From an uncultured Thermoleophilia bacterium (GTDB lineage Bacteria > Actinomycetota > Thermoleophilia > UBA2241): a stretch of DNA of 64,000 bases. The notes under the pieces were generated by a model, which did not search any database, was not told the DNA's origin, and worked only from the letters and a program-made list of their open reading frames with translations. This document shows, piece by piece, positions 4,083 to 63,812 of this stretch (position 1 is the stretch's first letter; each line of letters opens with the position of its first letter). Where the stretch lies: assembly GCA_963808735.1 (NCBI GenBank), contig CAWEHE010000008.1, forward strand, positions 192,719 through 256,718. Reading direction: 5' to 3'. The position numbers were made by a program, and so were the translations under genes.

Positions 4083-4537
4083 GAGAGCTCGGCACCATCG
4101 AACAACGCATCAAGGACGACGCCACCGCGGCGCTCAAGGCCGGCGACAAGCGCCGCCGCGAGGCGCTCAACTCGTTCGTCGCCGCGCTCAAGAAGGAGCG
4201 CATCGACAGTCGCAAGCAGCCCACCGAGGCCGACGAGCTCACGGTGCTCAAGCGCGAGCGCAAGCGGCGCGCGGAGGCGATCGAGCTGTACGACCAGGCC
4301 GGACGCGCCGATCTCGCCGATCAGGAACGCTTCGAGGAGGAGCTCCTGAAGGGATACATGCCCGAGGAGCTCACCGACGCCGAGCTCGAGGAGCTGGTGG
4401 ACGAAGGCATCGCCGCCACCGATGCCGTCACGCCCAAGGACATGGGCAAGGTGATGGGCTGGCTCAAGCCCAAGGTCGCCGGCCGCGCCGACGGCAAGAA
4501 GCTCAGCGACCTCGTCCGCGGTCGTCTGGGGGGCTGA
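4079..4537 (+). CDS. yqeY: GatB/YqeY domain protein
   Basis: 152 aa. Start overlaps the previous stop. Typical YqeY composition (KAGDKRRREALNSF..ELLKGYMPEELTDAELEELV). Confidence 0.75.
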   Translation: MRELGTIEQRIKDDATAALKAGDKRRREALNSFVAALKKERIDSRKQPTEADELTVLKRERKRRAEAIELYDQAGRADLADQERFEEELLKGYMPEELTDAELEELVDEGIAATDAVTPKDMGKVMGWLKPKVAGRADGKKLSDLVRGRLGG

Positions 4538-4539
4538 AG

Positions 4540-5556
4540 GTGACGCCGGTGACGCGCATGGTGATCGATCTCGACAGCAACAGCGTCGCCCTCGGCCTCG
4601 CCGGGGAACACGACGCTCACCTCAAGATCCTCGAGCAGCGGCTCGACTGCACGCTGACGCTGCGCGGCAACGTGCTCATCCTCGAGGGCGACACGGACGC
4701 CGTGGAGAAGGCGCGCGCCGCTATCGACGAGCTGCTCACAGTGATCCAGAGCGGCCGTCCGATCAACCCGGGCATCGTCGAGTCGCTCATGGACATCGCC
4801 GTCAACTCCTCGGGCAAGCCCTCGGAGGTCTACGGCGACGTGGTGTGGACGCACCGCGGCCGCCAGATCGGCCCGCGCACCGTCAACCAGAAGTTGTACG
4901 TCGACGCCATCCGCAAGAACACCATCACGTTCGGCATCGGCCCTGCCGGCACCGGCAAGACCTATCTGGCCACCGCGATGGCCGTGAACGCCTTCTTCGG
5001 CAAGCAGGTCGGACGCATCATCCTCACGCGGCCGGCGGTGGAGGCTGGGGAGAGCCTCGGGTTTCTGCCCGGGACGGTGAGCGAGAAGGTCGATCCGTAC
5101 TTCCGGCCGCTGTTCGATGCCCTCTACGACATGATCGACGGCGAACGGCTCGCGGCGCTCATCGAGAAGGGCGAGATCGAGGTGGCGCCGCTCGCCTACA
5201 TGCGCGGGCGCACGCTCAACGACTCGTTCATCATCCTCGACGAGGCGCAGAACACCTCACCCGAGCAGATGAAGATGTTCCTCACGCGCCTCGGGTTCGG
5301 AAGCAAGATGGTGGTCACCGGCGACGTCACGCAGATCGACCTGCCGCACAGCCGGACCTCGGGGCTGGTGACGGTGCCCGAGGTCCTCGACGATGTCGAC
5401 GACATCACCATCGTCGAGTTCGACGGGCACGACGTCGTGCGTCACAAGCTCGTCCAGCGCATCGTCAACGCGTACAAGGCGCACGACGACCAGCTGGATG
5501 CGGCGCGGGCGCAGCGCTCCGCGTCCGGCCCGCACCACGACCGGAGTGACTCGTGA
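4540..5556 (+). CDS. phoH: PhoH-like ATPase (PhoH/YbeZ family)
   Basis: Walker A GPAGTGKTYLA, Walker B IILDEAQN, and a KH-like N-terminal region. GTG 4540 (or ATG 4558) just after the yqeY stop. The track ORF 3979..5556 has an out-of-frame N-terminal extension. Confidence 0.85.
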   Translation: MTPVTRMVIDLDSNSVALGLAGEHDAHLKILEQRLDCTLTLRGNVLILEGDTDAVEKARAAIDELLTVIQSGRPINPGIVESLMDIAVNSSGKPSEVYGDVVWTHRGRQIGPRTVNQKLYVDAIRKNTITFGIGPAGTGKTYLATAMAVNAFFGKQVGRIILTRPAVEAGESLGFLPGTVSEKVDPYFRPLFDALYDMIDGERLAALIEKGEIEVAPLAYMRGRTLNDSFIILDEAQNTSPEQMKMFLTRLGFGSKMVVTGDVTQIDLPHSRTSGLVTVPEVLDDVDDITIVEFDGHDVVRHKLVQRIVNAYKAHDDQLDAARAQRSASGPHHDRSDS

Positions 5557-6116
5557 ACCTCGTCGAGGTGGTCAACGCCACGCGTACGGACATCGACGAG
5601 GAGCTCGTCGCCCGCCTCGTGGCCACGGTGCTCGAGGCGGAGGGCGTGGCCGGCGCCGAGGTCGCCGTGGAGTTCGTCGGCGAGGCGCGCATCCGCGCCT
5701 TGAACCGCGAGCATCGCGGCAGGGACGAGGTCACCGACGTGCTCTCCTTTCCGCTCGAGGACTGGGACGAGGCCGACGACGCGCCGGCTCCCGCCGGCCC
5801 GGCGGGCGAAGGCCGCACTCGCCCGGCAGCTTCGCCGGCGCCCGACCTTGGCGAGGTCGCCGCGGCGGTCGTCGCCGGCGAGGCCGGGCCGCCGCTCATG
5901 CTCGGCGACATCGTCGTGTGCACGCGCCGGGCGCTGCGGCAGGCGCACGCCGACTCGCTGCCGCCGGCCCTGGAGCTCGCCGTCCTGCTCGCCCACGGCA
6001 CGCTGCACCTGCTCGGCTACGACCACGAGACCGATGCCGGCCAGATGGCGTTCCGCCAGGCCGAGGTGCTCGAGCTCGTCGATTGGGAGGGCCTCGTTGT
6101 CGCAGCGTCGCGGTAA
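5553..6116 (+). CDS. ybeY: rRNA maturation endoribonuclease YbeY
   Basis: GTG overlaps the phoH stop. Conserved HGTLHLLGYDH metal-binding motif. Contains a Pro/Ala-rich insertion. Confidence 0.85.
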   Translation: MNLVEVVNATRTDIDEELVARLVATVLEAEGVAGAEVAVEFVGEARIRALNREHRGRDEVTDVLSFPLEDWDEADDAPAPAGPAGEGRTRPAASPAPDLGEVAAAVVAGEAGPPLMLGDIVVCTRRALRQAHADSLPPALELAVLLAHGTLHLLGYDHETDAGQMAFRQAEVLELVDWEGLVVAASR

Positions 6117-8861: not shown

Positions 8862-8892
8862 CGAGGGCGACCGGCGAGGCACAGGCGACATC

Positions 8893-9258
8893 GTGGACCA
8901 CGGCAGCTTCCTCGAGCTCGTGCGCTACAGCGCCGACGGCCTCGTGCCCTGCGTCGTCCAGGCGGCAGAGGGCGGAGAGGTCCTCATGGTCGCCTACGCG
9001 AACGAGGAGGCCATGCGGATGACGCTGGCCACCGGCGAGGCGCACTTCTGGAGCCGCAGCCGGCGCGAGCTCTGGCACAAGGGCGGCACCAGCGGCAACG
9101 TGCAGCGTGTCGTGTCCGCCAGGCTGGACTGCGACCACGACACGGTCCTCCTCGTGGTCGCGCCCGCCGGCCCGGCGTGCCACACGGGAGCCGTGAGCTG
9201 CTTCCGCGACGAGGCCAACGGCGGCGCGGCCACGAGCCCCTCGGCCGAGAGCGAGTGA
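8893..9258 (+). CDS. hisI: phosphoribosyl-AMP cyclohydrolase
   Basis: 121 aa. HisI motifs ([37 protein letters not shown]). Confidence 0.85.
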
Positions 9259-10928
9259 ACCGCGGTCCGGCGGGCCTGTGGCGGCGCCCCGGCGTCGCCG
9301 GCGTTCTGCTGCTCGCCGTGCTCGTCCTGGCCCTGGCGCTCCGCCTCAAGGGGGTCGCGTACGGGCTGCCGTTCAGCTTCGTCAACGCCGACGAGAGCAT
9401 CGTGGTGCCCAAGGCCTTCCAGGCCGCGCGCGGCCACCTGAACCCGCAGTTCTTCTTCTATCCGTCCCTGTACTTCTATCTGGTGGCTGCGCTGTACGTG
9501 GTGGCGGCCCCGGTGTGGTGGCTCCTGGGGAACGGCAACCTGCTCGGAACCACCTCCTTCGTGACCGACCCCGGGGTCCACTTCCTCCTGGGGCGACTGC
9601 TCTCGGTCGCGATGGGGACCGCCTCCGTGTACCTCTTGTATCGCCTGGGCCGGGACGCCTTCGGCCGCCCGGCCGGCCTCGTCGCCGCGGCTCTCCTCGC
9701 CGTGGCGCCGCTGCACGTCGCCTATTCGCACATGGCGGTCACCGACGTCACCGCGGTGGCCTTCTCGCTGTTCGCGCTGGTCCTGCTGCAGCTGGCGGCG
9801 ACCGGACCGGAGCGGTCGCGCTCGGATGTCGCCACGCGCCGCCTGCTGATCCTCGGGGCCGTGGCCGCCGGCCTCGCCACGTCGACCAAGTACAACCTCG
9901 GCATGCTGGTCCTGCCGGCGACCGCGGCGGCCGTGTACGCCTGTCGCCCGGAGGTCGCGCGCCGGACCGCGGAGGGGGCGCGCGGCGCGCTCGTGTGGCT
10001 GCGTCTGCTCGCGCTTCGCGTGTACCTGCCGATGGCCGTGGCGTTCGTGCTCGCGTCGCCCTTCGTCGTGCTCGACGCGCCGCACTTCCTCTCCGACTTC
10101 GCGCGCCAGAACCGGATCATGGACAGGGGGTGGCTGGGGTTCGAGAACGTCGGCAACGGCTTCTGGTACAACGTCACGCCCAACCTGACGGGGGCGGTCG
10201 GGGTCGTCCTCGTGTTGCTGGGCGCTGCCGGCCTGGGCTGGGCCCTCTGGCGGCGCACGCGGCTGGACGTGATGGTCGCGCCCTACACGATCGTCTACTT
10301 CGTCTACATCGGCACCTGGAAGGAGCTGGCCGACCGGTACCTGCTGGTGATCGTGCCGCTCCTTATCCTGCTGGCCGCGCGGTTCTGCGTCGAGGTGGTC
10401 GCGCTGTGGCCGAGGCGCCGCCGCGTCGTCGCGTCGCTGGTGGCGGCAGTGCTCGTCGCGGCCTTCGTGCTGCCGCTCACGTCTTCGATCGCCTACGACC
10501 GTACGCTCAGGGGTACCGACACCCGGGAGCTGGCGCGGGAGTGGATCCAGGACAACCTGCCGCCCGGAGCGCTCATCGCCGTGGAGAACTACGGTCCGCC
10601 GCTGGTGCGCGTCGACGTGCTCGAGCACTACCGCGCCGCCGGCCTGGACCCGGTCGCGTACCGCCTGCTCCGGCTGAAGCTGCCGGCGCCCGGTGTCCCG
10701 GAGAGCTCGCGCGACCTGGACCGGCTGCGGGAGCAGGGAGTGGAGTACGTGGTGGTGAGCTCGCGCATCCGCGCGCGCGTGCTCGCCGCGCCCGAGGTGT
10801 ATCCGACGATCGTCGACTTCTACCGGCGGCTCGACGCGGAGACCGAGCTCGTCAAGGAGTTCCGGCCCGGTCCGGGAGAGCGCGGGCCGGTTCTCAGCCT
10901 CTACCGTATCAGCGGCTCCGGCCGTTGA
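9255..10928 (+). CDS. GT39/ArnT-like polyprenol-phosphate dependent glycosyltransferase (membrane)
   Basis: GTG 9255 overlaps the hisI stop. About 557 aa, many TM segments, family-typical [11 protein letters not shown] motif. C-terminal soluble domain. Confidence 0.7.
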
Positions 10929-11937
10929 GTTCCGCGGGAGCCTCGCCCGCCGCCGCCTCCACCTCGCCCTCGGTGATCGCGCGGCGGCCCGGCCGCACGA
11001 TGGCATAGGCGACGAACCCGGGCGGGATCGGCAGCCAGAAGTTGATGATGCGGTAGATGAGCACGACGGCGACCGCGACTGCCGACGGGACGCCGAAGCT
11101 CACGTAGAGCGCGATGAGGATGCCCTCGACGGCGCCCAGTCCGCCGGGAGTGGGCGCGAGCGTACCGATCGAGTAGGCCACCACGTAGCCGATCAGCAGG
11201 TGGCCGAGGCCGATGGTGTAGCCGAACGCGGCGAACGTGCACCACAGGCAGAGCATATCGAAGAACCAGAAGGCGCAGGCGAGGACCAGCGTGGTCCGGA
11301 AGGCGCCACGGTGGCCCGTCATGCGGCGCATGCCGATGAGCAGGTTGTCGATCCAGCCGTCGATGTGGCGCTCGTGCACGACCTCCCGCCGCATGACCCT
11401 GTTCACGAGGCGGGCGATCTGCGCGACCCTCAGCCGCAGTCGGGTGGGGTGGTTGTACAGGTAGACCCCATAGAACGTGAGCCACAGAAGCAGCAGGATC
11501 AGGACGACCCCGACCAGGTAGCCGAAGACAGAGTCGCCGCCACGGACGACGATCAGATACACGAGGGCGATCGCGAAGAAGAACCAGAGCACCACGTAGT
11601 TGAAGAACTGCTGTGCGGCGACGGCCACGAAGATGATGCCGTGCGGCACGCGGCGCTTCATGAGCGCGTTGTACGTGACCACCCAGCCACCCACGCCTCC
11701 GGCCGAGAGGATGTGGCTCACGGCGAGGCCGCTGAGGGTGATGGCCAGCACCTCGCGCAGGCGGATGCGGATGTCGAGCACGCGCAGCACGTAGCGGAAC
11801 AGGTTGGCGTAGCCGAGCAGCGCGGCGACTTCCAGCGCGACGGCCAGCACGAGCAGCACGTAGCTCGCCTTGGAGATGTACTGGACCGTCTGCTGCGTGT
11901 CGACCAGGCGCGGGAGCAGCAGGTACAGCGCCACCAC
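10909..11937 (-). CDS. flippase-like/UPF0104 (MprF-type LPG-synthase TM region) membrane protein
   Basis: 342 aa, 8 or more TM helices, conserved GGLG motif (PTPGGLGAVEG). In-frame protein-like sequence continues upstream to about 12075 without a canonical start. Confidence 0.65.
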   Translation of the reverse strand: MVALYLLLPRLVDTQQTVQYISKASYVLLVLAVALEVAALLGYANLFRYVLRVLDIRIRLREVLAITLSGLAVSHILSAGGVGGWVVTYNALMKRRVPHGIIFVAVAAQQFFNYVVLWFFFAIALVYLIVVRGGDSVFGYLVGVVLILLLLWLTFYGVYLYNHPTRLRLRVAQIARLVNRVMRREVVHERHIDGWIDNLLIGMRRMTGHRGAFRTTLVLACAFWFFDMLCLWCTFAAFGYTIGLGHLLIGYVVAYSIGTLAPTPGGLGAVEGILIALYVSFGVPSAVAVAVVLIYRIINFWLPIPPGFVAYAIVRPGRRAITEGEVEAAAGEAPAELNGRSR

Positions 11938-12129
11938 GATGATGGCGAAGACGATGATGTGGCGGAGCGTCTTCTTGATGGCGTCCCCCCAGGGGCAGGC
12001 GGGCCCTCCCGCCGGTCCAAGACAGTACCACAGAGCAGGGTGGAGCCGTGCGGGTCCGGAGGAAGCCGCGCGGGCTCAGTGGACGCTCAGGTACGTCCCG
12101 AGTCCGGGGGCCAGGCGGCACCCATGGTC

Positions 12130-13280: not shown

Positions 13281-13461
13281 CTACCTCCCCGAACGAACAA
13301 CGCGGCGTCTCGACGCGCCCCCTCATCCGTTCGCCCTCCTCTTCACCCCCATCACCTCCTGCGGCGTTCGCATGCGGGCATCGCGCGGCCGGGACGCGGA
13401 ACGCCCCCGTCGGCACAGGCGCAGCCGCTGCCCCTGGGGGAACTCACGTCGAAAGGACCTT

Positions 13462-14223
13462 GTGAGTCGAGGAAAGAGCTTGATCGCGATCCTTGCGATC
13501 CTCATCGTCGCCACCGCCATGGTCACCGTCGCCACGCCACAGAAGGCGGAGGCGGCCACCACCCTCAAGGGCAAGCTCAGCATCGCCAAGCGTGCCCTCC
13601 GTCACTCGAACCACCGCCTGAGGACCGCCAGGGCCGCGCTGGCCGCGGCCATCCTGGCGACGACCACCGGGACGCCGACCGTCGACGCGACTGCGGCCAC
13701 CCCCACCCCTTCGCCGTCGCCGACGGATGTCACCCCCACCCCTTCGCCGTCGCCGACGGATGTCACCCCGACCCCGACCCCGTCGCCGCTGGCCGCCACG
13801 GCCGGGCCGTCCGTGGACGAGCTGCGGGCGCGGGTCGGCAAGATCCGCCGCCACGTCCGCATCTTGGAGCGGCGCGTGCACCGTCTGGCGAGGAAGTACC
13901 GCCTGCAGCAGCAGATGGCAGCCTGGGAGCGTCAAGGGAAGTGGATGCCGATCATCGAGATCGCCGCGGCCAAGTACCACGTCAGGGCCAACGGTATCTA
14001 CGGCATGATGATGCGCGAGTCCGGCGGCCAGCGCTACGCGGGCTCGAGCTCGCCCTACAAGGGCCTCTTCCAGTACCACACGGGCACCTGGACGGCCAGC
14101 TGGAACCCGTATCGCCACGACAGCATCTACGACGGCAGCTCGCAGATCTTCGCGACCTGCTACGCCGTGAGTCGCGGCATGGGTCCCTCCATGTGGACCA
14201 CCACCTTCGCCTCGCAGTACTGA
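13462..14223 (+). CDS. secreted transglycosylase-like (Rpf-type) protein
   Basis: GTG 13462 after a GAAAGGAC RBS. Signal peptide (SLIAILAILIVATAMVTVATPQKAEA), coiled-coil, Pro/Thr-rich linker with a 2x repeat. C-terminal RESGGQRYAGSSSPYKGLFQYHTGTW matches the transglycosylase-like domain of resuscitation-promoting factors. Confidence 0.7.
   Translation: MSRGKSLIAILAILIVATAMVTVATPQKAEAATTLKGKLSIAKRALRHSNHRLRTARAALAAAILATTTGTPTVDATAATPTPSPSPTDVTPTPSPSPTDVTPTPTPSPLAATAGPSVDELRARVGKIRRHVRILERRVHRLARKYRLQQQMAAWERQGKWMPIIEIAAAKYHVRANGIYGMMMRESGGQRYAGSSSPYKGLFQYHTGTWTASWNPYRHDSIYDGSSQIFATCYAVSRGMGPSMWTTTFASQY
13699..13764 (+). repeat. 2 x 33-bp exact direct repeat (TPTPSPSPTDV) in the Pro/Thr linker of the Rpf-like protein
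   Basis: ACCCCCACCCCTTCGCCGTCGCCGACGGATGTC occurs twice in tandem. Confidence 0.85.
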
Positions 14224-14422: not shown

Positions 14423-14510
14423 GCCGGTGTGGCGGAACTGGTAGACGCGCTCGACTCAAAATCGGGTGCCCCGAAAGGGCGTGTGGGTTCGAGTCCCACC
14501 TCCGGCACCA
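14423..14510 (+). tRNA. tRNA-Leu (anticodon CAA)
   Basis: Cloverleaf by eye. Acceptor GCCGGTG/CTCCGGC (one mismatch), anticodon loop CTCAAAA, long variable arm, T-arm GTGGGTTCGAGTCCCAC, 3' CCA. Confidence 0.8.
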
Positions 14511-14639: not shown

Positions 14640-15323
14640 ATGACGGTGCGGCTACTGGGGCTCAACTGCAGCCCTCGCGACAACAGCAACAGCGGCATCA
14701 TGCTCGACAAGGCCTTCGAGAAGCTCGACGCCGTCTACCCCGGTGAGGCCGAGCACGAGGTCGTCAACCTGCGCGACCTGCACATCGAGCCCTGCAAGGC
14801 GTGCAACGTCTGCGGAAAGAAGAAGGACGGCACCTTCATCCCCTGCGTCCGGGAGAAGGAGGACGACGTCGAGTCCGTCCTCGAGGCCATGGTGGCTGCT
14901 GACGGCATCCTCGTGGCCACGCCGGTGTACTTCGGGCTCCCGTCGGACCTGTTCGCCAAGTTCATCATGCGCACGCGGCCGCTGCGCCACCAGGACTTCA
15001 AGCTCGCCAACAAGCCCGTCGGGGTGCTCGCCACCGCCGGCCGCCGCTCCGGGGGCGCGGAGACGGCGATCATCGCTACCTGGCTGCCCTTCGTGCGCAA
15101 CGGCTGCCTCGTCGTGGGCAACGGTGACGGCACTTCCCAGTTCGGCGCCTACGGCTGGGCCGGCGCCCGCGGGCACGTCCTCAGCGACGAGTGGGGCCTC
15201 GAGCAGGCCTTCCAGACCGCGCAGCGCGTGTTCACTCTGGGCGGCCTGATCAAGGCCGGCGTCGAGGCCTCGGGCTTCGTGAACCCGATGAAGTTCTCGT
15301 ACAGCCAGGGGACTCGCGGCTGA
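14640..15323 (+). CDS. NADPH-dependent FMN reductase / flavodoxin-like (iron-sulfur flavoprotein-like) protein
   Basis: ATG 14640 after GGAGAGGAGCAGGA. LLGLNCSPRDNSNSG and ILVATPVYFG motifs. The track ORF start 14466 lies inside the tRNA and is rejected. Confidence 0.7.
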   Translation: MTVRLLGLNCSPRDNSNSGIMLDKAFEKLDAVYPGEAEHEVVNLRDLHIEPCKACNVCGKKKDGTFIPCVREKEDDVESVLEAMVAADGILVATPVYFGLPSDLFAKFIMRTRPLRHQDFKLANKPVGVLATAGRRSGGAETAIIATWLPFVRNGCLVVGNGDGTSQFGAYGWAGARGHVLSDEWGLEQAFQTAQRVFTLGGLIKAGVEASGFVNPMKFSYSQGTRG

Positions 15324-15357: not shown

Positions 15358-15606
15358 ATGACCGACGCCGACACCATCCTCGAGTTCATCCGCGACGAGG
15401 CCGACCTCGAAGAAGACGAGGTCACCGCCGACACGTCGCTGTTCCGCGACCAGCTGCTCGACTCCATGAACCTCACGGCGCTGATCGCGTTTCTCGAAGA
15501 GACATTCGCCATCAAGGTGAAGCCCATGGACATCGTCTTCGAGAACCTCGACACCGTGAACCACATGCTGGCCTACGTCGCGCGCAAGAAGGCGGGCGAT
15601 GCCTGA
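15358..15606 (+). CDS. acyl/peptidyl carrier protein (DltC-like)
   Basis: 82 aa, acidic. Phosphopantetheine-attachment context LLDSMNLTALIAFLE. Confidence 0.75.
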   Translation: MTDADTILEFIRDEADLEEDEVTADTSLFRDQLLDSMNLTALIAFLEETFAIKVKPMDIVFENLDTVNHMLAYVARKKAGDA

Positions 15607-15796
15607 AGCGGGCAGCGACAGGCCGCCGGAGAGCGGCGAGGATGTCCAGTCGCCGTCCGAGCCGCGCGGGCACTGGTTCTACTACGGCCTCGGGCTGAGC
15701 CTGCAGACCTTTCTCTGGTTCCTGGTCTTCCTGGCGATCACCGTCGCCGTGCTCGTGGGCGGCAAGCTCACCGAGTTCAGATACGTCGGCTTCTGA
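15599..15796 (+). CDS. small single-TM membrane protein (DltX-like?)
   Basis: 65 aa, ATG overlaps the carrier-protein stop. One TM helix. C-terminal FRYVGF resembles the FxYxxF tail recalled for DltX. Positioned between the carrier protein and the ligase. Confidence 0.4.
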   Translation: MPEAGSDRPPESGEDVQSPSEPRGHWFYYGLGLSLQTFLWFLVFLAITVAVLVGGKLTEFRYVGF

Positions 15797-15818
15797 CCAC
15801 CGCATCTCCGGCGCTGCG

Positions 15819-17354
15819 ATGACACCCGAACCCCTGATGACCGACGCCGTGGCGCGCCTGCGCCGCTGGGCGGCCGAGCGCGCCGACGAGACGCTGCTGC
15901 GCACGCGCGGCCGCGTCTACGCCTACGCTGATGTGGAGGCGAGGGCGACGCGCGTCGCGGCGGCCCTCCTGGCCGCCGCCGGGCGGCGCGGCGCCCGCGT
16001 CGCGCTGGTGCTCGAGGAGTACGACCAGTTCTTCGTCTGCATGCTCGGCGCCTGGCTTGCCGGCCAGGTGGTCGTGCCGCTCAACACGAGCCTGCCGCAG
16101 AGCGACGTCGACTGGCTGGTCGGCAAGTCGCGACCGGACGTCGTCGTGCTGCCGGACGACGAGGCTTGCCCGACGCCGGGCGACGGCCCTGTCCGGCTTG
16201 TCGTGACCGCCGACGCCGATGGCCTCGTCGACGGCGTGCGCGCGGCCGGCGGCGGAGCCGCTCCGGCAGCCTCCGCGGAGGAGCTCGTGGCCGTGCGCGA
16301 GGACGAGCTCGCGATGATCATGTTCACCTCGGGCACGACCGGCCTGCCCAAAGGCGTCTGCCAGACGCTTCGCGCGATCTCGAGCAACGCCGGCAACGTC
16401 GCGCGGACGTTGGGGCTCGAGGCGGGTGACAGGGTCTTCATCAACACGCCGCCGTACTTCACCAGCGGCATCTGCCACTTCCTGACGCTGCTCGCCAACG
16501 GCGGCGGCGTCGCCGGCCAGCTCGGCTTCTTCTTCGGCGCCGGCCTCCTCGACGAGATGGAGGCCGAGGGCTGCACCGGGTTCGGGGGCGCCCCGGCCCA
16601 TCTGGTGCGCGTGGTCGAGCCGCTGGAGGAGCCGCGCGAGCACGGGTTCCGCTTCTGGGTGAGCAGCGGCGACCACCTGCCGCTGCCGGTGATCGAGAAG
16701 TTCCGCCGCGTCCTGCCCGGCGTCAGCCTCTTCAACATGTACGGCCTCACCGAGGTGAGCGGCCGGCTCTGCATCCTGCCGCCGGCCGACCTCGACGTGT
16801 GCGTCGGCTCCGTCGGCCGGCCGATCGGCGACATGCGCGTGGTCGCGCGGCGCGGCGACGGCGCCGAGGCCGCGCCCGGCGAGACCGGCGAGCTCTTCGT
16901 CACCGGCTCGCTGCTCATGCAGGGCTACCTGGACGAGCCGGACATCACCGCGAAGACGCTCACCCCCCTCGGCCTCAAGACCGGCGACTTCGGCCGCGTC
17001 GACGAGAGCGGCGCGGTGTGGATCGCCGGCCGCAAGGACGACATCATCAAGCGCGGCGGCGAGAAGGTCAGCATCATCCACGTGCAGGAGGCGCTGCAGG
17101 GTCTCGGGCGCTTCGCCGACGTCGCCGTGGTGGCCGCGCCCGACGAGATCCTCGGCCACGTGCCGGTGGCGTTCGTCGTGCCGCACGAGCCCGAGGGGTT
17201 CAAGGCCTCGAAGCTCCTGAGGGAGCTGCGCGGCGTCCTCCCGTCCGCTTCACTGCCCAGCCGGGTGATCGCCGTCGCGGCGATCCCGCGCACCGGCTCC
17301 GGGAAGGCGATCAGGGCCGAGTTGCGGAAGCTGCTCGCCGAGGAGCTGGGGTGA
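15819..17354 (+). CDS. AMP-binding adenylation enzyme (DltA-like carrier-protein ligase)
   Basis: 511 aa. ANL motifs MFTSGTTGLPKGV, YGLTE, GDFGRVDESGAVWIAGRKDDIIKRGGEKV, C-terminal PRTGSGKAIR. Confidence 0.85.
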   Translation: MTPEPLMTDAVARLRRWAAERADETLLRTRGRVYAYADVEARATRVAAALLAAAGRRGARVALVLEEYDQFFVCMLGAWLAGQVVVPLNTSLPQSDVDWLVGKSRPDVVVLPDDEACPTPGDGPVRLVVTADADGLVDGVRAAGGGAAPAASAEELVAVREDELAMIMFTSGTTGLPKGVCQTLRAISSNAGNVARTLGLEAGDRVFINTPPYFTSGICHFLTLLANGGGVAGQLGFFFGAGLLDEMEAEGCTGFGGAPAHLVRVVEPLEEPREHGFRFWVSSGDHLPLPVIEKFRRVLPGVSLFNMYGLTEVSGRLCILPPADLDVCVGSVGRPIGDMRVVARRGDGAEAAPGETGELFVTGSLLMQGYLDEPDITAKTLTPLGLKTGDFGRVDESGAVWIAGRKDDIIKRGGEKVSIIHVQEALQGLGRFADVAVVAAPDEILGHVPVAFVVPHEPEGFKASKLLRELRGVLPSASLPSRVIAVAAIPRTGSGKAIRAELRKLLAEELG

Positions 17355-18424
17355 GCAGCTTCAGACGCGGCCTGAGAAACAGGAACCCTCTCGTGCTCGT
17401 CGTGGCGCTGGCGCTCATCGTGCCCGTGCTCGCTGGCGCCCAGGACTACTTCGCGAGCGGGCGCTGGACCGACGTGCCGCTGGAGTACTGGCTACGGACA
17501 GCCAGCGACGACTACTCCTATGTCTCGTGGGTGGTCGGCAGCGTGAAGCGTGACCCGCCGCAGAAGCCGTCGCTCTTTCTGCTCGGAGGCTCGAGCGCGC
17601 GCGAGTCGATCGTGAGTGGGGCCAGCCTCGCCGCCGACGTCAAGAGGGAGGGCGGCCCCGACGTCGCCGCCTGGGATCTCGGGTCGATGAACCAGAACTT
17701 CGCCCAGAGCCTGGCCGTTGCCGACAACGTGCCGGCGACGCCGACGTACCTGCTCATCGGCGTCGGCCTCGGGCGCTTCACCTCCGACCGTGGTGCCAGC
17801 TTGAAGCAGGCCGAGGGACGCGAGCTCCTTCTGGAGAGCCGGTTCCTCCAGCGGTACGTGGCGCGCACCTACGGCAAGTACAGGTACACGACGACGATTC
17901 TGCCGGGCGTCTTCGCCCAGCTCACGAGCAAGGTCCAGCAGCAGGGCGGCGAGCTGCTCTCGGGCAAGCTGCCTCGCCGCACCTACGGCCAGCACCGCTA
18001 CAACGTCCGCAACAGCCATACGGTGGCGGAGAAGGAGCGCATGGTCACGGTCTGGAACAAGAGGCGCTACCCCAAGTTCCGGCGACACCTGAGGTTCCAT
18101 CTCGACATGCTCGAGCAGCTGCTCGTCCGCGCTCGGCAACGCGGGCTCCACGCGGTCCTCGTCGAGCTCCCGCTCAACCGGGAGATCGTGGGCGATCGCT
18201 TCGACTACGCCATCGCCCAGTACCAGTCGCCGGTCAAAGCCCTGGCCGCCGAGTACGGGGTACCCTACGTCGACTTCAACCGCGACCTGCGTATCCCCGA
18301 CGGTGACTTCCATGACCTCACTCACCTCACGGAGCCGGGGCGCGTGATCTGGCAGCGCCGGCTGGCGCGCGAAGTGGTGACGATCATGGGCGAAGACCCC
18401 CACGGCGGCGGCGAGTCTCAATGA
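17352..18424 (+). CDS. DltD/SGNH-like membrane-anchored protein, paralog 1
   Basis: GTG overlaps the ligase stop. N-terminal anchor RRGLRNRNPLVLVVALALIV, candidate nucleophile LLGGSSARESI, C-terminal DxxH (DFHDLTHL). Paralogous to 18513.. and 20858.. Confidence 0.6.
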
Positions 18425-18512
18425 GCGCTTCCTTCATCAGGCACTCCGTCCGTGACGCGCTTCGGAGGGTGACGCGGACGTCCACGGTCCGCGCTCGCGG
18501 GGAGACCCTCTG

Positions 18513-19578
18513 ATGGGCTCCTTCAGCCGCGGATTCCGCAGCCGCAGCCCGCTGGTGCTGCTGGCCGGCGCTCTGCTGCTCGTGCCGGCGCTGCTCGGCT
18601 TCCAGTGGCTGTTCACCAGCGGGACGTGGACGGTGGTGCCGCTCGACCGCGCCCTGCGCAACCCCCAGGATTCGTTCATCTACGTCTCGTGGATGGTGGG
18701 CCGGGCGCGGCGCGAGCCGCCGGACACGCCCAGCCTCTATCTGGTCGGCGGCTCCAGCGCGCGCGAGTCGATCGTCGGCGGCGACGCGCTCGCCGCCGAG
18801 ATCGAGGCGCTCGGCGGACCTCGCGTCGCCGCCTACGATCTCGGCTCGATGAACCAGAACTTCGCCGAGAGCCTGGCCGTGGTGGACAGCGTGCCGGACA
18901 CACCGGCCTGGCTGCTCGTCGGCGTGAACCTGGGCCGCTTCACGGCGACTCGGGAGCAGAACGCCGCGCAGGCGGAGGGCCGCGAGTTCCTGCTCCGCAG
19001 CACGGCCATCCGCGAGTTCGCGGCCTCCGAGTGGGGTCTCGCGAAGTACCAGTACACGGTCCTGCCGGGCATCTGGTCGTACATCACCGACTGGACCAGG
19101 GCCCACGGGCGGTCGGTGCTCGAGGGTCAGCCGCCCTCGACGCAGTACGAGCTGCATCGATACTCTGAGCAGACCAAGCGGTCGGATCGTCAGAAGGAGC
19201 GCATGGTGACCGTGTGGAACACGAAGCGCCGGCCGGTCTTCGAGGAGAACCTGGACGGCAACCTGCAGATGCTCGAGGCGCTCCTGCAGCGGGCCGGCGA
19301 GCGCGACGTACGCGTGGTCCTCCTCGAGCTGCCCCTCAACGAGGAGATCGTGCGCGGGCGCTTCCACGCCTCGCAGGAACAGTACCGGCGACCGGTGTTG
19401 CGGCTGGCGCGCAGGTACGATGTGCCCTACGTGGACCTGAACGCCGACGTCGCCATCCCGAGCGCCGACTTCCAGGACCTCTCACATCTGATCGCGCCGG
19501 GGCGCGTGATCTGGCAACGTGCGCTGGCGCAAGGAGCTGGTGCGACTCATGGACGGCGGAGACGCTGGAGGGAAGTAG
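18513..19578 (+). CDS. DltD/SGNH-like protein, paralog 2 (apparent frameshift near 19535)
   Basis: Same architecture (SRGFRSRSPLVLL, LVGGSSARESI, DFQDLSHL). After VIWQRALAQ the paralog-like C-terminus KELVRLMDGGDAGGK* is in the +1 frame and ends at 19578. The track ORF runs on to 19859 in the wrong frame. Confidence 0.55.
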
Positions 19579-19581
19579 CGG

Positions 19582-20827
19582 GTGAAGATCTACTTCACGC
19601 TGTATCTGATCCCTGTTGTGGTCGTGGCGCTGCTCGTGTTCTGGCTCGCCCTGCGCAGGGACGTCTACCGTCTGGTGTTCATCCTGCTCCTCAGCGTGGG
19701 TGTCCTGGCCGTGCTCAACCCGGCGTTCGCGATCGTGGCGCTCGGGCTGGTCCTGATCACGCACCAGCTGGTCGAGCTCAAGCGGCGGGAGAAGTTGCGC
19801 GGCGCGCGCGTCGTGCTCATCGCCGTGATCATCGCGCTCGTGACGCTCGGCATCGGTAAGTACGGCCAGAGCGGCGTCATCGCCATCTGGGGTGAGGACG
19901 ACTGGGTCGTCAGCCGCCTGATCATGCCGCTCGGCATCAGCTACTTCGTGTTCCGCATGCTGCAGTACGTCTTCGACTGCATGCGCGGCGTGATCCAGGA
20001 GAACTCACTGCTGCGGCTGGGCGCCTTCATGATGTTCATCCCGACGTTCCCGGCCGGCCCGCTCGAGACCTACCAGGGCTTCTACGAGAAGCGCAGCTTC
20101 ACGTTCGACCGTCAGCTGTTCTACTTCGGCCTCCGGCGCATCGTGATCGGCTACTTCAAGAAGGTCTTCGTCGTCGACTTCCTCTTCTCGATCTTCTTCG
20201 CCGAAGATCGTGACGACCATCGGCCGCACGGACTTCGACCCCGGGGACGTCGGCACGTGGTGGCCGCTGGCCTACTGCATCATCGTCTTCGTGCGCGCCT
20301 ACTTCGACCTCTCCGCCTACACGGACCTGGCGATCGGCTTCTCCGCGCTCTTCGGCTTCCGGATCATGGAGAACTTCCACTACCCGTTCTGGCAGAAGAA
20401 CCTGAGCGACTTCTGGCGCAGCTGGCACATCTCGCTGAGCACGTGGTGCCGCAACAACGTGTACTTCCCGGTGTTCGGGCTCACGCGCAAGGTGTGGCTC
20501 GGTCTCTACGCCAGCATGCTCACCATGGGCCTGTGGCACCGCGTCGACCTCAACTGGCTGGCGTGGGGCCTGTATCACGCCACGGGCCTGGTGATCGTCG
20601 CCCGCTGGGAGCGCTGGAAGAAGAAGCGCAAGAAGGCGCGCAAGAAGGCCGGCCTGCCTCCGGCCGCCGGCTACGAGAAGTTCACCAAGTGGCTGGGCTA
20701 TCCGGTGACGTTCCTGTATGTCGCGCTCGGCTACGCGTTCGTGGCCACGCCGAGCTTCGAGCGCTCCCTCAAGATCCTGTTCAACGTTGTCCGGCTGCCG
20801 CTGGCGTGGCTTACTGGACTGGTGTGA
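19582..20827 (+). CDS. MBOAT-family membrane O-acyltransferase (DltB/AlgI-like), apparent frameshift near 20205
   Basis: N-terminal half in the frame of 19582 (..GYFKKVFVVDFLFSIFF). C-terminal half in the frame of 20210 with MBOAT signature ENFHYPFWQKNLSDFWRSWHISLSTWCRNNVYFP (conserved His). Confidence 0.75.
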
Positions 20828-20857
20828 GGCCATGGCGATGTCGGCAGGGAGCACGGC

Positions 20858-21997
20858 GTGACGCCACGTGAGACACGGCGCACCAGTCCGTGGCGCGCCT
20901 TCGGCCGCGGGTTCCGCCAGCGGAGCCCGCTGGTGCTGGTGGCCGCCGCCGTCCTGACGGCGGCGGCGCTCTTCGCCGCGCAGGGGATCTTCTTCGGCGG
21001 CGGCCTCACCGTGGTCGACGAGGGCCGCCTCCTGCGCATCACCCACGACGACTACGTGCACGTCTCGGTCCGGGTCGAGCAGCTCAAGCAGGACCCGCCG
21101 ACGACCCACACGATCTATCTCTTCGGCGGCTCCGGCACCATGGAGTGCTTCATCAGCGAGGAGTCGCTCGGTGCGGCCGTCACGCGCGACGCCGGCGAGC
21201 CCATCCGGGTCGTGAGCCTGGCCGCGCATCAGGAGAGCATGGCGATGACGCTGGCGCTCGCGGACAACCTGCCGCCCGGGCCCGCCACGCTGGCGATCGG
21301 CCTGGCGCCCATCCGGGTGACGGGCAAGCCCGAGCGCGACGCGGAGCTGCTGAGCGGGCACACGCTCCTCGTGCGCAGCCCGCGCCTCGCCGCGGTGGCT
21401 CCCCGCTACTTCGGGCAGACACCGCCGCCGACGGGGGCGATCCCCGGCCTCTTCGACTACATCGGCTCCTACGTGCGCGAACGCGCGGCCGGCAAGACGC
21501 CTTGGGGCGGCCGCCTGCGCTACGAGACGCACTATTACCCGCCCGGGGCAAAGGGGCACACCCAGCTCGGCAAGCGGCGCAACGTGCTCTACGTGCTCGA
21601 GAAGGACGTGAGGCTGTACCGCAAGTACGCGGACTACAACTTCGCCATGCTCGAGGAGGTGCTCGATCTGGCGCGGGACCGTGGCTACTCCGTCGTGCTC
21701 TACGACCAGCCGCTCAACGCCTCGGCGGCCGGTCCCGACTGGGCCGGCGTGGTGCCGGCCTACCGCAAGCGCGCCGCGCAGCTGGCCGCGCGGTACGACG
21801 TGCCCTACCTGCACATCGAGCGCCGCGTCGAGCTCAACGACCTCGACTTCGCCGATCTCTTCCACCTTTTCGCCCGCGGGCGCGCCAAGTGGCAGCCGGA
21901 GATGGCGCGCCAGCTCGCCGGCGCGCTGAAGGCGCAGGCGGGCGAGCCGTTCGCCTCCGGGATCGCGTCTGCGGTCCCCTCCGCCGCGCTCCGATGA
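20858..21997 (+). CDS. DltD/SGNH-like protein, paralog 3
   Basis: GRGFRQRSPLVLVAA anchor, LFGGSGTMECF, C-terminal DFADLFHLF. More diverged than paralogs 1 and 2. Confidence 0.55.
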   Translation: MTPRETRRTSPWRAFGRGFRQRSPLVLVAAAVLTAAALFAAQGIFFGGGLTVVDEGRLLRITHDDYVHVSVRVEQLKQDPPTTHTIYLFGGSGTMECFISEESLGAAVTRDAGEPIRVVSLAAHQESMAMTLALADNLPPGPATLAIGLAPIRVTGKPERDAELLSGHTLLVRSPRLAAVAPRYFGQTPPPTGAIPGLFDYIGSYVRERAAGKTPWGGRLRYETHYYPPGAKGHTQLGKRRNVLYVLEKDVRLYRKYADYNFAMLEEVLDLARDRGYSVVLYDQPLNASAAGPDWAGVVPAYRKRAAQLAARYDVPYLHIERRVELNDLDFADLFHLFARGRAKWQPEMARQLAGALKAQAGEPFASGIASAVPSAALR

Positions 21998-25033: not shown

Positions 25034-26243
25034 CTAGTAGCGCACCATCAGCTTCCGCGTCGCGGCCGTCAGCCCGTCGACGGTGAGCTCGAACATGGGG
25101 AAGACCTCGCGGACCTTGCGGATGGTGACGCTGCCGTAGGCGCGGTCCCAGTCGGCCTCCGAGATGGTGTTGAGCCACACGGAGTGGTCGAAGTGGCGGC
25201 GCAGGCGGCGGAGCCACTCGATGCCGGGCTCGTCGTTGCCGAAGCCCCACCAGATGATGCCGTCGCGCGACAGGAGCTCGCTGGGCGCCATGGCCGCGTC
25301 GCCGACGATGATGAGCTTGTAGTCGCTGGGAAGCTCCTGGAGCACGCGGCGCGTGGAGATCGCCTCGGACGACGTCATGCGCGTGCTCGTGTACAGCCAG
25401 TCGTAGACGCAATTGTGGAAGTAGTAGAAGCGCAGGTCCTTGAAGTGGCTGCTGCGGTTGACGGCGCTGAAGAGCTGGCTGCAGAGGCGGATGTAGGGGT
25501 GCATGGATCCGCCGACGTCCATGAGCAGCAGCACCTTGACGGCGTTCTTGCGGCTCTTGCGCCAGACGAGGCTGAGGCGGCCGGCGTTGCTCGCCGTCTC
25601 CTCGACGGTCTCGTCGAGGTCGAGCTCGTCGGGCACGCCCTCGTTGCGCGACGAGAGCTGACGAAGGCGCCTGAGCGCGAGCTCGAACTGCCGCACGCCG
25701 ACCTCCTGGTCGGTGCGGTAGCCGCGGTAGCGGCGCTCGCCGGCCACCTTGACGGCGCTCCGACCCCGGCTCGCGCCGCCGACGCGGATGCCGCCGGGGT
25801 GGAAGCCGGAGTGGCCGAAGGGACTGGTGCCGCCGGTGCCCACCCAGCGGTTGCCGCCGTGGTGAGCCTCGGTCTGCTCCCGCAGGCGCTCCTCGAACAG
25901 CCGCTGGAGCGCCTCGAGATCGAGGTCCTCGAGCGCGGCGGCCAGCGCCCGCCGCTCCTCGGTCGCTGAGCCCGGGCATGGTCAAGGGGTTCGCCAGCCA
26001 GTCCCAGACCTCGTCGTCGATCTCCACCGGCGTCTCGATGCCCTTGAACATGGCCGCGAACGCCTGGTCGTACTGGTCGAAGTACGCCTCGGACTTGACC
26101 AGGACGCTGCGGGCGACGGCGTAGAACTGGTCGAGTCCGGTCGGCACGAGCCCCATGGCGAGTCCGCGCATGAGGGCCAGCCACTCCGTGACCGTGACCG
26201 GCACCCCGTAGAAGCGCAGCAGGAAGAAGAAGTCGGTGAACAC
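25034..26243 (-). CDS. VWA-domain protein (CoxE-like, MoxR partner); apparent frameshift near 26000
   Basis: N-terminal part in the frame of 26243 (MFTDFFFLLRFYGVPVT..), C-terminal part in the frame of 25843 (vWA core LLLMDVGGSMHPY). Junction at GCCCGGGCTCAGCG, a homopolymer context. Confidence 0.7.
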
Positions 26244-33216: not shown

Positions 33217-33331
33217 GGACGCCCGGCCCGCCCTCCGGGAGCACGGACTCAGGCGGACACTGAGCGGATCGGCCCCGGGGCGCGGTGCTCGGCGCGGCGG
33301 CCGACGGTAGCACGATGACGCAGGCAGGCAC

Positions 33332-63387: not shown

Positions 63388-63772
63388 AAGGCAAGCCAGG
63401 TGGCCGCGAGCGGGTCGCGTCGCGGAGCTCTTCGGAGCCCGCAAGGCTCCCGTCCGAGGAAAGTCCGGACACCGCAGAGCAGGGCGCTGGCTAACGGCCA
63501 GCCGGGGAAACCCGAGGGAAAGCGCAACAGAGAGCAGACCGCCAGCGGCCCCTTTCGAGGGGTGCGGGTAAGGGTGAAACGGTGAGGTAAGAGCTCACCA
63601 GCGGTCCTGGCGACAGGCCGGCTCGGCAAGCCCCGCCCGGTGCAAGACCAAATAGGGGAGCGTTCGAGGGTTGCTCGTCCGAGGCTCCCGGGTTTCGGTC
63701 GCATGAGGCGCACGGCAACGTGCGTCCCAGATGGATGGTCACCCACGACAGGATCCGGCTTACGGCTTGCTA
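63388..63772 (+). ncRNA. rnpB: RNase P RNA, bacterial type A
   Basis: GGAAAGTCCGGAC (P4), GGGTGAAACGGTGAGGTAAGAGCTCACCAG, ACAGGATCCGGCTTACGGCTTGC. 5' GCAAGCC pairs with 3' GGCTTGC (P1). Confidence 0.85.
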
Positions 63773-63774
63773 CT

Positions 63775-63812
63775 GAAAGGCCCCTCGGTCCAGCTGGACG
63801 AGGGGCCTTTCC
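63775..63812 (+). terminator. hairpin directly downstream of rnpB
   Basis: AAAGGCCCCTCG-gtccagctggac-GAGGGGCCTTT. Confidence 0.45.

Follow-up and report, generated by a model that had tools for sequence, protein, structure and literature searches.

The window analysed here is a 64-kb stretch of DNA from an uncultured bacterium of the class Thermoleophilia. Just downstream of a tRNA-Leu gene (14423-14510), its + strand carries a gene for a flavoprotein of the FMN_red type with a flavodoxin fold (14640..15323; PF03358, E=2.2e-22). There follow, on the same strand, genes for an 82-aa carrier protein (15358..15606), a 65-aa DltX-like microprotein (15599..15796), a 511-aa adenylating ligase of the ANL superfamily (15819..17354), the paralogous SGNH proteins SGNH-1 (357 aa; 17351..18424) and SGNH-2 (18513..19585), a DltB-like MBOAT (19582..20827; 414 aa when repaired) and a divergent paralog, SGNH-3 (379 aa; 20858..21997). 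A preliminary description of this locus listed the last seven genes as co-directional. All seven are indeed present on the + strand, but the upstream flavoprotein gene and two broken frames had been overlooked. The same description placed the cluster outside an obvious teichoic-acid locus, and this is borne out: no teichoic-acid or polysaccharide genes lie near it in the 64 kb or in syntenic relatives, and no acceptor-synthesis genes are linked to it in the neighbourhoods inspected. Start and stop codons overlap between the carrier and microprotein genes, the ligase and SGNH-1 genes, and the SGNH-2 and MBOAT genes, which indicates that they form one operon. The gene set recurs, in the same order, at about 50 independent loci in MAGs of uncultured Thermoleophilia. 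This recurrence is far beyond chance, and the operon is conserved in soil actinobacteria of this class.

The flavoprotein gene is co-directional with the others, and 34 bp separate its end from the carrier-protein gene. About 45 of 50 loci, among them the most divergent locus, L027, have it 3-108 bp 5' of that gene, and the operon probably starts with it. The protein has a CX2CX2CX10C motif whose four cysteines are at least 90% conserved among 44 orthologs. In the PDB, it comes closest to the ene-reductase FLR (7d38), though weakly (E=3e-8). This Fe-S-type flavoprotein may make or condition the acid used by the ligase.

The carrier protein matches PF00550 above the cutoff (E=1.4e-9). The serine in LLDSMNL to which the preliminary description had pointed, Ser36, is the phosphopantetheine attachment site; it aligns with the serine of S. 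aureus DltC. In the NCBIfam search, generic ACP and DltC models matched the protein, all below cutoff. The microprotein gene starts within the carrier-protein gene, overlapping its end by 8 nt. Its product has one transmembrane segment by hydropathy (residues 35-53), an acidic and freely variable N-terminus, and a C-terminus, LTEFRYVGF, shared without change by 52 of 52 loci. The terminal FRYVGF (codons 15776-15793), which contains Tyr62, fits the FxYxxF motif of DltX, experimentally defined as its acyl-shuttle motif (PMC12148441); the DltX of S. aureus ends in FIYNEF. Thus, the earlier comparison with DltX stands for the transmembrane segment and the invariant FxYxxF end, but not at the level of profiles, as the Pfam and NCBIfam models, DltX included, gave zero matches. 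Unannotated metagenomic homologs of the microprotein number 520.

The ligase is confirmed as an adenylation enzyme by its matches to PF00501 (E=4e-63) and PF13193, and the A10 lysine is present. It would presumably load the carrier protein. Judged by its sequence, it is not a DltA-type enzyme, and on this point the initial assignment fails. Its best NCBIfam and PDB matches are fatty-acyl-CoA ligases (FadD13, 157 bits; PRK06187, 260 bits), closer than DltA, which is 22% identical and scores 100 bits (E~1e-27). Moreover, the specificity position holds Thr215 instead of the aspartate that binds the alpha-amino group. This threonine, located in the invariant NTPPYFTSGICHF, sits at the position of Asp235 of NRPS A domains in the alignment to LgrA and at that of the equivalent Asp in FDLS of DltA in the alignment to S. 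aureus DltA. It is invariant in 43 ligase orthologs. Since an invariant Thr replaces the amine-binding Asp of amino-acid-activating enzymes, the acyl group is most likely neither D-alanine nor another alpha-amino acid. The missing Asp speaks against an alpha-amino acid without naming the substrate. By motif mapping, the pocket is predicted to be lined by the polar and invariant Thr215, Ser216, His220, His260, and Arg316, and these putative pocket residues give a weak hint of a small polar or anionic acid.

SGNH-1 begins at a GTG codon that overlaps the ligase stop codon (GTGA). Its predicted triad (Ser81, Asp322, His325) is kept in SGNH-2 and SGNH-3, which are 53% and 34% identical to it, respectively, and the Ser, Asp, and His are invariant in the family. 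SGNH-3 has other residues in place of N114-Q115, a pair that does not vary within the SGNH-1 subfamily. The N-terminal anchors are preceded by Arg residues, which would place the SGNH domains outside the membrane. The SGNH fold is confident, and DltD accounts for the best Foldseek matches and the nearest solved structure, with low TM-scores of about 0.4. At the sequence level, PF04914 (DltD) matches none of the three paralogs at E<0.1, and their only matches, to PF13472, are below threshold. Likewise, aligning the family profile with the DltD profile gave an insignificant hhalign probability of 1.6%. On this evidence the SGNH proteins belong to a family separate from DltD, with homology undetectable at sequence or profile level. 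Calling them DltD-like is therefore apt for membrane-anchored SGNH proteins with DltD as the nearest structures, but not for their family. Similarly, the proposed triplication of DltD describes the three copies at this locus and not a fixed feature, since individual loci carry between 1 and 4 copies. In 40 of the 46 loci that could be judged, SGNH-3 lies downstream of the MBOAT. The presence of 1-4 paralogs probably reflects different acceptor or positional specificities, or a relay. Alternatively, one or more of them might act as esterases in the manner of DltE or Ape1, removing or editing the acyl decoration, so that the locus would encode a writer together with erasers. We consider this unlikely; every paralog retains the triad and the membrane anchor, although sequence cannot separate a transferase from a hydrolase.

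Two genes are frameshifted in the window. GC3 frame plots and alignment to L001, a 93%-identical relative used as the reference for frame repair, revealed 1-nt insertions at 19533 and 19573 in SGNH-2 and at 20203 in the MBOAT gene. The last ~17 codons of SGNH-2 are disrupted, its literal ORF continuing to 19859, and the MBOAT gene is split into pieces at 19582-~20205 and ~20204-20827. In L001 both genes are intact, encoding an SGNH-2 ortholog of 356 aa (10875-11945) and an MBOAT of 414 aa, to which the repaired MBOAT protein is 97% identical. Because L001 is intact and equivalent frame-breaking indels occur in unrelated genes of the window, encoding an M42 peptidase (22116) and VWA_CoxE (~25963), the frameshifts are likely an assembly error. 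Given the two frameshifted genes, this particular genome could carry an inactive system. Finding three 1-nt insertions within 700 bp, all restricted to the window when compared with intact relatives, would also be expected if the cluster were a decaying pseudogene array and the frameshifts real mutations. That reading is quite unlikely in view of the indels in the two neighbouring genes and of similar breaks in 11 of 58 related MAG loci. In addition, the relatives are contig-named MAG assemblies, probably long-read, in which indel errors are expected, and, indels aside, the coding sequence keeps its GC3 signal and its 97% protein identity to L001.

The MBOAT has its catalytic His in FWRSWHISLS and is DltB-like in size (414 aa versus 404 aa for S. 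aureus DltB). It matches DltB in the PDB (8jem, E=5e-34) and aligns with the DltB model TIGR04091 (1.5e-47) over residues 4-385 and model positions 7-374 of 380. In acyl-CoA-type MBOATs, FxYxxF is fused on two extra C-terminal helices (PMC12148441), and our control of this type, a 460-aa MBOAT from Bartonella, ends in FIYFNF. We found no fused C-terminal FxYxxF in the window MBOAT. Of the suggested DltB/AlgI-like character, the likeness to DltB is supported by collinearity and by the unfused motif, but the score of 162 bits stays below the equivalog cutoff of 375 bits. Plasmid searches yielded generic 'MBOAT family O-acyltransferases' that are as similar to the protein as S. aureus DltB is.

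Five functional roles are common to this cluster and to DltXABCD, the teichoic-acid D-alanylation system of Bacillota, here represented by the S. aureus operon (L081). Each system has a small carrier protein and a ligase that adenylates its substrate. Each also has an MBOAT of the DltB type that carries no fused motif, a microprotein with a single TM and an FxYxxF end, and an SGNH-fold protein, anchored at its N-terminus, for which DltD is the nearest solved structure. Unlike DltXABCD, the window cluster follows the order flavoprotein-C-X-A-D-(D)-B-D with an extra Fe-S-type flavoprotein, its 1-4 SGNH copies flank the MBOAT, its microprotein ends in FRYVGF instead of FIYNEF and leaves DltX models unmatched, and its host belongs to the Actinomycetota. 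Genuine D-alanylation, or another aminoacylation, of a teichoic-acid-like polymer by an orthodox Dlt system with shuffled order and extra DltD copies would account for a component list equal to dltXABCD, for the DltD structures among the top Foldseek matches, and for DltA remaining a significant ANL match. It would also fit DltB being the sole named MBOAT family matched, in NCBIfam and PDB collections that possibly lack other bacterial MBOAT subfamilies. Nevertheless, this explanation is very unlikely. The ligase has the invariant Thr215 at the amine-binding position and scores 157-260 bits against acyl-CoA ligases versus 100 bits against DltA, the SGNH paralogs fail both PF04914 and the hhalign comparison, and teichoic-acid genes are absent. 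The likeness to the Dlt machinery initially reported is therefore one of analogous architecture, with D-alanylation disfavoured by the ligase and SGNH family tests. The preliminary description had named two outcomes that would speak against it, paralogs not matching DltD or SGNH profiles and a ligase clustering with fatty-acyl-AMP ligases, and each was observed in part.

Envelope decoration by a ligase and a carrier protein is also known from AlmEFG of Vibrio cholerae, where glycine modification of lipid A depends on a ligase resembling DltA and a carrier protein resembling DltC. The decorated molecule is thus not a teichoic acid, and the substrate is an amino acid. AlmG belongs to the lipid A acyltransferase family and is not an MBOAT, and AlmEFG is not known to include a microprotein or SGNH proteins. 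In PatA/PatB, AlgI/AlgJ/AlgF/AlgX, and WssH-type systems, an MBOAT is likewise combined with SGNH proteins outside the cytoplasm and with an acyl-tyrosine shuttle, and the alginate system, too, does not rely on a single SGNH-like protein but has both AlgJ and AlgX. These acyl-CoA-dependent systems lack the carrier, ligase, and microprotein, and their MBOATs themselves bear FxYxxF as a fused C-terminal motif (PMC12148441; Bartonella example), whereas in the window a separate microprotein bears it, with carrier protein and ligase encoded alongside. It is hardly probable that the locus joins two unrelated modules, a cytoplasmic flavoprotein/carrier/ligase set for a lipid or metabolite and an acyl-CoA-dependent MBOAT-SGNH O-acetylation of the PatA/PatB or AlgI/AlgJ type: the similarity of the ligase to acyl-CoA ligases, the frequency of acetyl-CoA-using MBOAT-SGNH pairs (PMC12148441), and the equally good generic MBOAT matches would agree with it, but the DltB-sized MBOAT lacks the fused motif of acyl-CoA-type enzymes, the motif belongs to a microprotein whose gene lies between those of the carrier and the ligase and overlaps the former, and the two sets never occur apart in about 50 loci.

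Altogether, we favour, with a probability of roughly 0.6, a carrier-protein-dependent, Dlt-type acylation pathway that would move an acyl group across the membrane. By analogy, the cluster probably works like Dlt without being a D-alanylation operon, as a variant of the Dlt-type MBOAT-SGNH pathway. In such a pathway, the ANL ligase would adenylate a carboxylic acid and thioesterify it to the phosphopantetheine on Ser36 of the carrier protein. The acyl-carrier protein would then dock on the DltB-like MBOAT from the cytoplasmic side, and the acyl group would pass through the MBOAT tunnel to Tyr62 of the microprotein, in its extracytoplasmic FRYVGF end. From this tyrosine ester, it would be transferred to the serine of the anchored SGNH proteins (Ser81, with Asp322 and His325), which may hand it on to one or more extracytoplasmic acceptors, at their hydroxyl groups. 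The acceptor may be an envelope polymer other than teichoic acid, as the preliminary description suggested. If this Dlt-type reading is true, an acyl group other than D-alanine would probably be attached to the cell envelope of these bacteria.

In the D-alanylation pathway of Gram-positive bacteria, DltB passes D-alanine from DltC to the invariant tyrosine of an FxYxxF 'acyl shuttle' at the C-terminus of DltX, and DltD takes it onto its own serine and then hands it to lipoteichoic acid (Anderson et al., 2025; PMC12148441). The same work treats acyl transfer that depends on a carrier protein and a microprotein as peculiar to D-alanylation, the non-Dlt MBOAT pathways having neither a carrier protein nor a DltX-like microprotein and carrying the motif fused to the MBOAT (PMC12148441). 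Our analysis supports a Dlt-like architecture for the Thermoleophilia cluster, which combines a carrier protein, an FxYxxF microprotein separate from the MBOAT, and a DltB-like MBOAT. The seven co-directional genes that the preliminary description had placed at 15358-21997 are borne out by the ORF listing and by a GC3 frame plot of the window, whose GC content is about 70%. Start codons overlap stop codons between the carrier-protein and microprotein genes, between the ligase and SGNH-1 genes and, additionally in L001, a close relative of the window, between the SGNH-2 and MBOAT genes. These overlaps indicate a single operon. The description was essentially right, but it left the frameshifts within the cluster unreported and missed a flavoprotein gene at its upstream end.

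Two of the genes, SGNH-2 (from 18513) and MBOAT (from 19582), are not intact in the window, where the coding frame changes near 19520 and near 20200 in the GC3 frame plot. Relative to L001, a metagenomic contig 93% identical to it (ENA ERZ25039527 contig_71765), the window carries 1-nt insertions, which the alignment puts at 19533, 19573 and 20203. An intact 356-aa SGNH-2 and a 414-aa MBOAT are encoded by L001 and by many other relatives, and deleting one base yields a repaired MBOAT that is 97% identical to that of L001. Outside the cluster, frame-breaking 1-nt indels relative to L001 are also found in the genes for an M42 peptidase (22116) and a VWA_CoxE protein (around 25963-25987), which points to general assembly indel noise over cluster-specific decay. 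Because similar indels occur in these unrelated genes, and split genes in 11 of 58 related MAG loci, the frame breaks are likely to be assembly errors. Real pseudogenisation, in which the broken frames of SGNH-2 and MBOAT would be genuine, is improbable on the same evidence. Programmed frameshifting can be rejected, since relatives have intact ORFs at all three sites.

The 82-aa carrier protein (15358-15606, forward strand) matches PF00550 (E=1.4e-9, 38.5 bits, cutoff 20.8), and its Ser36, within LLDSMNL, aligns with the phosphopantetheinyl serine of DltC. Against it, DltC models reach 31 and 19.5 bits (cutoffs 68 and 52); generic ACP models score slightly above them, yet under their own cutoffs. 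The gene that follows (15599-15796, forward strand) encodes a 65-aa microprotein with one hydrophobic or transmembrane segment (residues 35-53) and the C-terminus FRYVGF, where the DltX of S. aureus ends in FIYNEF. The microprotein thus has the single transmembrane segment and the FxYxxF hexapeptide at the extreme C-terminus that are characteristic of DltX (motif as defined in PMC12148441). Across 52 of 52 loci it keeps the same nine C-terminal residues, LTEFRYVGF, and its N-terminus varies freely. Searches against Pfam gave no DltX match, the single hit being a spurious one to DIE2_ALG10 (E=0.025), and NCBIfam gave no hit at E<0.1. The family comprises at least 520 metagenomic members, all of them unannotated ('hypothetical'), and the best 120 matches of the profile search were close orthologs only.

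The repaired MBOAT is collinear from end to end with TIGR04091, the DltB equivalog model, at 162.6 bits (1.5e-47) against a cutoff of 375 bits. Among solved structures, it matches those of DltB (8jem, 5e-34; 6bug, 2e-32), with the WHxSLS histidine aligned. With 414 aa and its histidine in WHISLS, it appears to be DltB-like in size and layout, yet no orthodox DltB. Its C-terminus, LPLAWLTGLV, lacks the FxYxxF motif. By comparison, the fused-motif, acyl-CoA-type MBOAT of a Bartonella plasmid, used as a control, has 460 aa and ends in FIYFNF. In systems of the PatA/AlgI type, the motif sits on two extra C-terminal transmembrane helices and there is no carrier protein or microprotein. The window operon departs from this type on both counts, with the motif on a separate microprotein and with a carrier protein and a ligase among its genes. 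As FRYVGF ends the microprotein while the MBOAT ends in LPLAWLTGLV, the predicted proteins have the split, Dlt-type arrangement of MBOAT and separate microprotein. A further split pair outside dlt operons was observed on the Leptolinea sp. HRD-7 plasmid AP024711.1 (Chloroflexota; 4271-5870), where the gene for a 483-aa MBOAT without a C-terminal FxYxxF is directly preceded by that for a 47-aa microprotein with the C-terminus LWIYQGF. No carrier-protein, ligase or SGNH gene is found near this pair, next to which a lipoprotein and a ProX/YbaK-like editing protein are encoded.

The ligase, an ANL enzyme of 511 aa (15819-17354, forward strand; PF00501 and PF13193), sets this operon apart from D-alanylation. 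Its best NCBIfam matches are acyl-CoA ligases (PRK06187, 260 bits; the exosortase-associated TIGR03098, 229 bits), and DltA models are absent from its top 25 NCBIfam matches. Its best PDB matches are FadD13 (157 bits), FadD5 and LgrA, and the direct comparison with DltA gives 100 bits and 22% identity. Thr215 of the ligase (FTSG) aligns with the Asp that binds the alpha-amino group in LgrA (FDxS) and in S. aureus DltA (FDLS), and the stretch around it, NTPPYFTSGICHF, is invariant in 43 orthologs. As is established for ANL and NRPS adenylation domains, an enzyme that has lost this Asp is not expected to use an alpha- or beta-amino acid. Hence, with Thr215 in place of the Asp, such a substrate is unlikely for this ligase. 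Mapping of motif positions, which is collinear with FadD13, tentatively places Thr215, Ser216, His220, His260 and Arg316 in a putative polar pocket. The label of D-alanylation therefore does not withstand the sequence-level comparison that the preliminary description had itself proposed, in which acyl-CoA ligases outscore DltA and the Asp is replaced by Thr215.

The designation of the three SGNH proteins as DltD-type fared no better in the profile search suggested along with it. None of the three paralogs matches PF04914 (DltD) at E<0.1, and matches to PF13472 are below threshold only; by sequence, the paralogs have no match in the PDB. In hhalign comparisons of the family, the probability was an insignificant 1.3% with the single S. 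aureus DltD and an equally insignificant 1.6% with a profile of 22 DltD sequences, in which only the block around the D-x-x-H motif aligned. The proteins do have the hallmarks of the SGNH superfamily, namely the SGNH fold with its nucleophilic Ser close to the start of the domain and D-x-x-H towards the C-terminus, and the predicted architecture is DltD-like, with an N-anchored SGNH core and extra helical elements. Residues G79, S81, E85, D322 and H325 are invariant in a broad alignment covering all paralog types. SGNH-1 (17351-18424) and SGNH-2 are paralogous N-anchored proteins, and the third paralog, SGNH-3 (20858-21997), is more divergent. Altogether, these proteins constitute a distinct family, DltD-like in structure and position and outside the DltD family. 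An exhaustive HMM search recovered 2010 cluster representatives of it at E<1e-3 and 214 at E<1e-30, and about 200-700 clusters at 50% identity are unannotated and labelled 'hypothetical'. The family is expanded well beyond the operon: stand-alone members with 30-50% identity occur in the same Thermoleophilia genomes at unrelated loci without a nearby MBOAT (for instance L053, L067 and L071, with others among L049-L080), some of them as tandem pairs.

A profile of SGNH-1 homologs recovered 78 loci from GTDB species representatives, almost all of them in MAGs of uncultured Thermoleophilia or other Actinomycetota. Searched by tblastn with the seven proteins of the window, about 50 of the 78 show the order carrier protein, microprotein, ligase, SGNH (one or more), MBOAT, SGNH-3. 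SGNH copies before and after the MBOAT number 1+0 in 6 loci, 1+1 in 19, 2+1, the state of the window, in another 19, and 3+1 in 2. The triplication noted in the preliminary description is thus present in the window but, because copy number differs between loci, represents one state of an expandable set. One full operon carries the label Armatimonadota (L046, JAKPQA010000341.1), and one member of the microprotein cluster is labelled Krumholzibacteria; both probably reflect mis-binned contigs and not a wider distribution.

Clustering of the flanking genes revealed a syntenic housekeeping neighbourhood in which a single gene is tightly linked to the cluster. This gene (14640-15323, forward strand) encodes an FMN_red-type flavoprotein (PF03358, E=2e-22). 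In about 45 of 50 loci, the most divergent one included, it precedes the carrier-protein gene by 3-108 bp. The CX2CX2CX10C motif of the flavoprotein is kept in at least 90% of 44 orthologs, and its nearest solved relative, a weak match (E=3e-8), is a flavone ene-reductase. Since a tRNA-Leu(CAA) gene lies immediately upstream (14423-14510), the operon probably starts at the flavoprotein gene. A scan for promoters and terminators returned 0 promoters, and terminators no more often than at background level. The Rfam scan revealed no riboswitch and matched only the tRNA-Leu and, near the window end (63388-63777), a bacterial class A RNase P RNA (268.6 bits).

The surroundings of the cluster agree with a placement outside an obvious teichoic-acid locus: there are no Tag/Tar/Lta-type or polysaccharide-synthesis genes in the 64-kb window and none of the Tag/Tar/Lta type in syntenic relatives. 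The neighbours encode DnaJ, a radical-SAM protein, YqeY, DAGK/PAP2, Era, a PMT_2 GT-C glycosyltransferase, an MprF-like TM protein, a methyltransferase, a transglycosylase-like protein, the M42 peptidase, a beta-propeller protein, VWA and MoxR proteins, sugar-phosphate isomerase-fold proteins, FakA/DegV, PntAB and a tyrosine recombinase. Two envelope-related proteins are encoded 3-6 kb upstream (8862-12075), namely the PMT_2-type glycosyltransferase (688 aa, forward strand), syntenic in about 25 loci, and the MprF-like LPG_synthase_TM protein (388 aa, reverse strand). The gene at 13372-14223, which 29 loci retain about 1.2 kb upstream of the operon, encodes a Pro/Thr-rich repeat protein (TPTPSPSPTDV units) with a lytic-transglycosylase-like C-terminus; an indel of one 33-nt repeat unit at 13704 distinguishes it from L001. 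The gene at 33311-35134 encodes a 607-aa protein with Dak2, FakA middle and DegV domains, an architecture of the fatty-acid-kinase type. Around the stand-alone SGNH paralogs (L050-L078), no consistent neighbour hinting at an acceptor was found, the genes there encoding HflX, an aminotransferase, GcvP, a rhomboid protease, an SDR and CarboxypepD_reg proteins.

By analogy with the reconstituted Dlt and PatAB systems, the best-supported reading is a three-step route. The ligase would charge the carrier protein with a non-amino carboxylic acid, the DltB-like MBOAT would transfer the acyl group to Tyr62 of the microprotein at the outer face of the membrane, and the anchored SGNH proteins would move it via Ser81 to extracytoplasmic acceptors. 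We tentatively propose, with a probability of about 0.45, that this is the first pathway of the Dlt type, with a carrier protein and a DltX-like acyl shuttle, to transfer something other than D-alanine, and that it is specific to Thermoleophilia. One or more envelope molecules of these actinobacteria would be esterified with a carboxylic acid that is not an amino acid and may be polar or anionic, supplied or conditioned by the Fe-S-type flavoprotein. Transferases of a hitherto unnamed SGNH family, forming an expandable set, would direct the acyl group to different acceptors. We found no description of Dlt-like systems in Actinomycetota in the literature searched. A non-DltA ligase in an actinobacterial operon of the same logic would change the picture in which carrier-protein and microprotein-dependent transfer belongs to D-alanylation only. 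In addition, our analysis defines two families now labelled 'hypothetical', that of the SGNH proteins and that of the microprotein. If the proposal is true, acyl-tyrosine shuttling by a separate microprotein would prove to be a general and re-targetable export route for acyl groups in activated form. The operon would then also be a sign of an envelope modification so far undescribed in Thermoleophilia, a class that is largely uncultured and was recovered here from many soil and other environmental metagenome assemblies.
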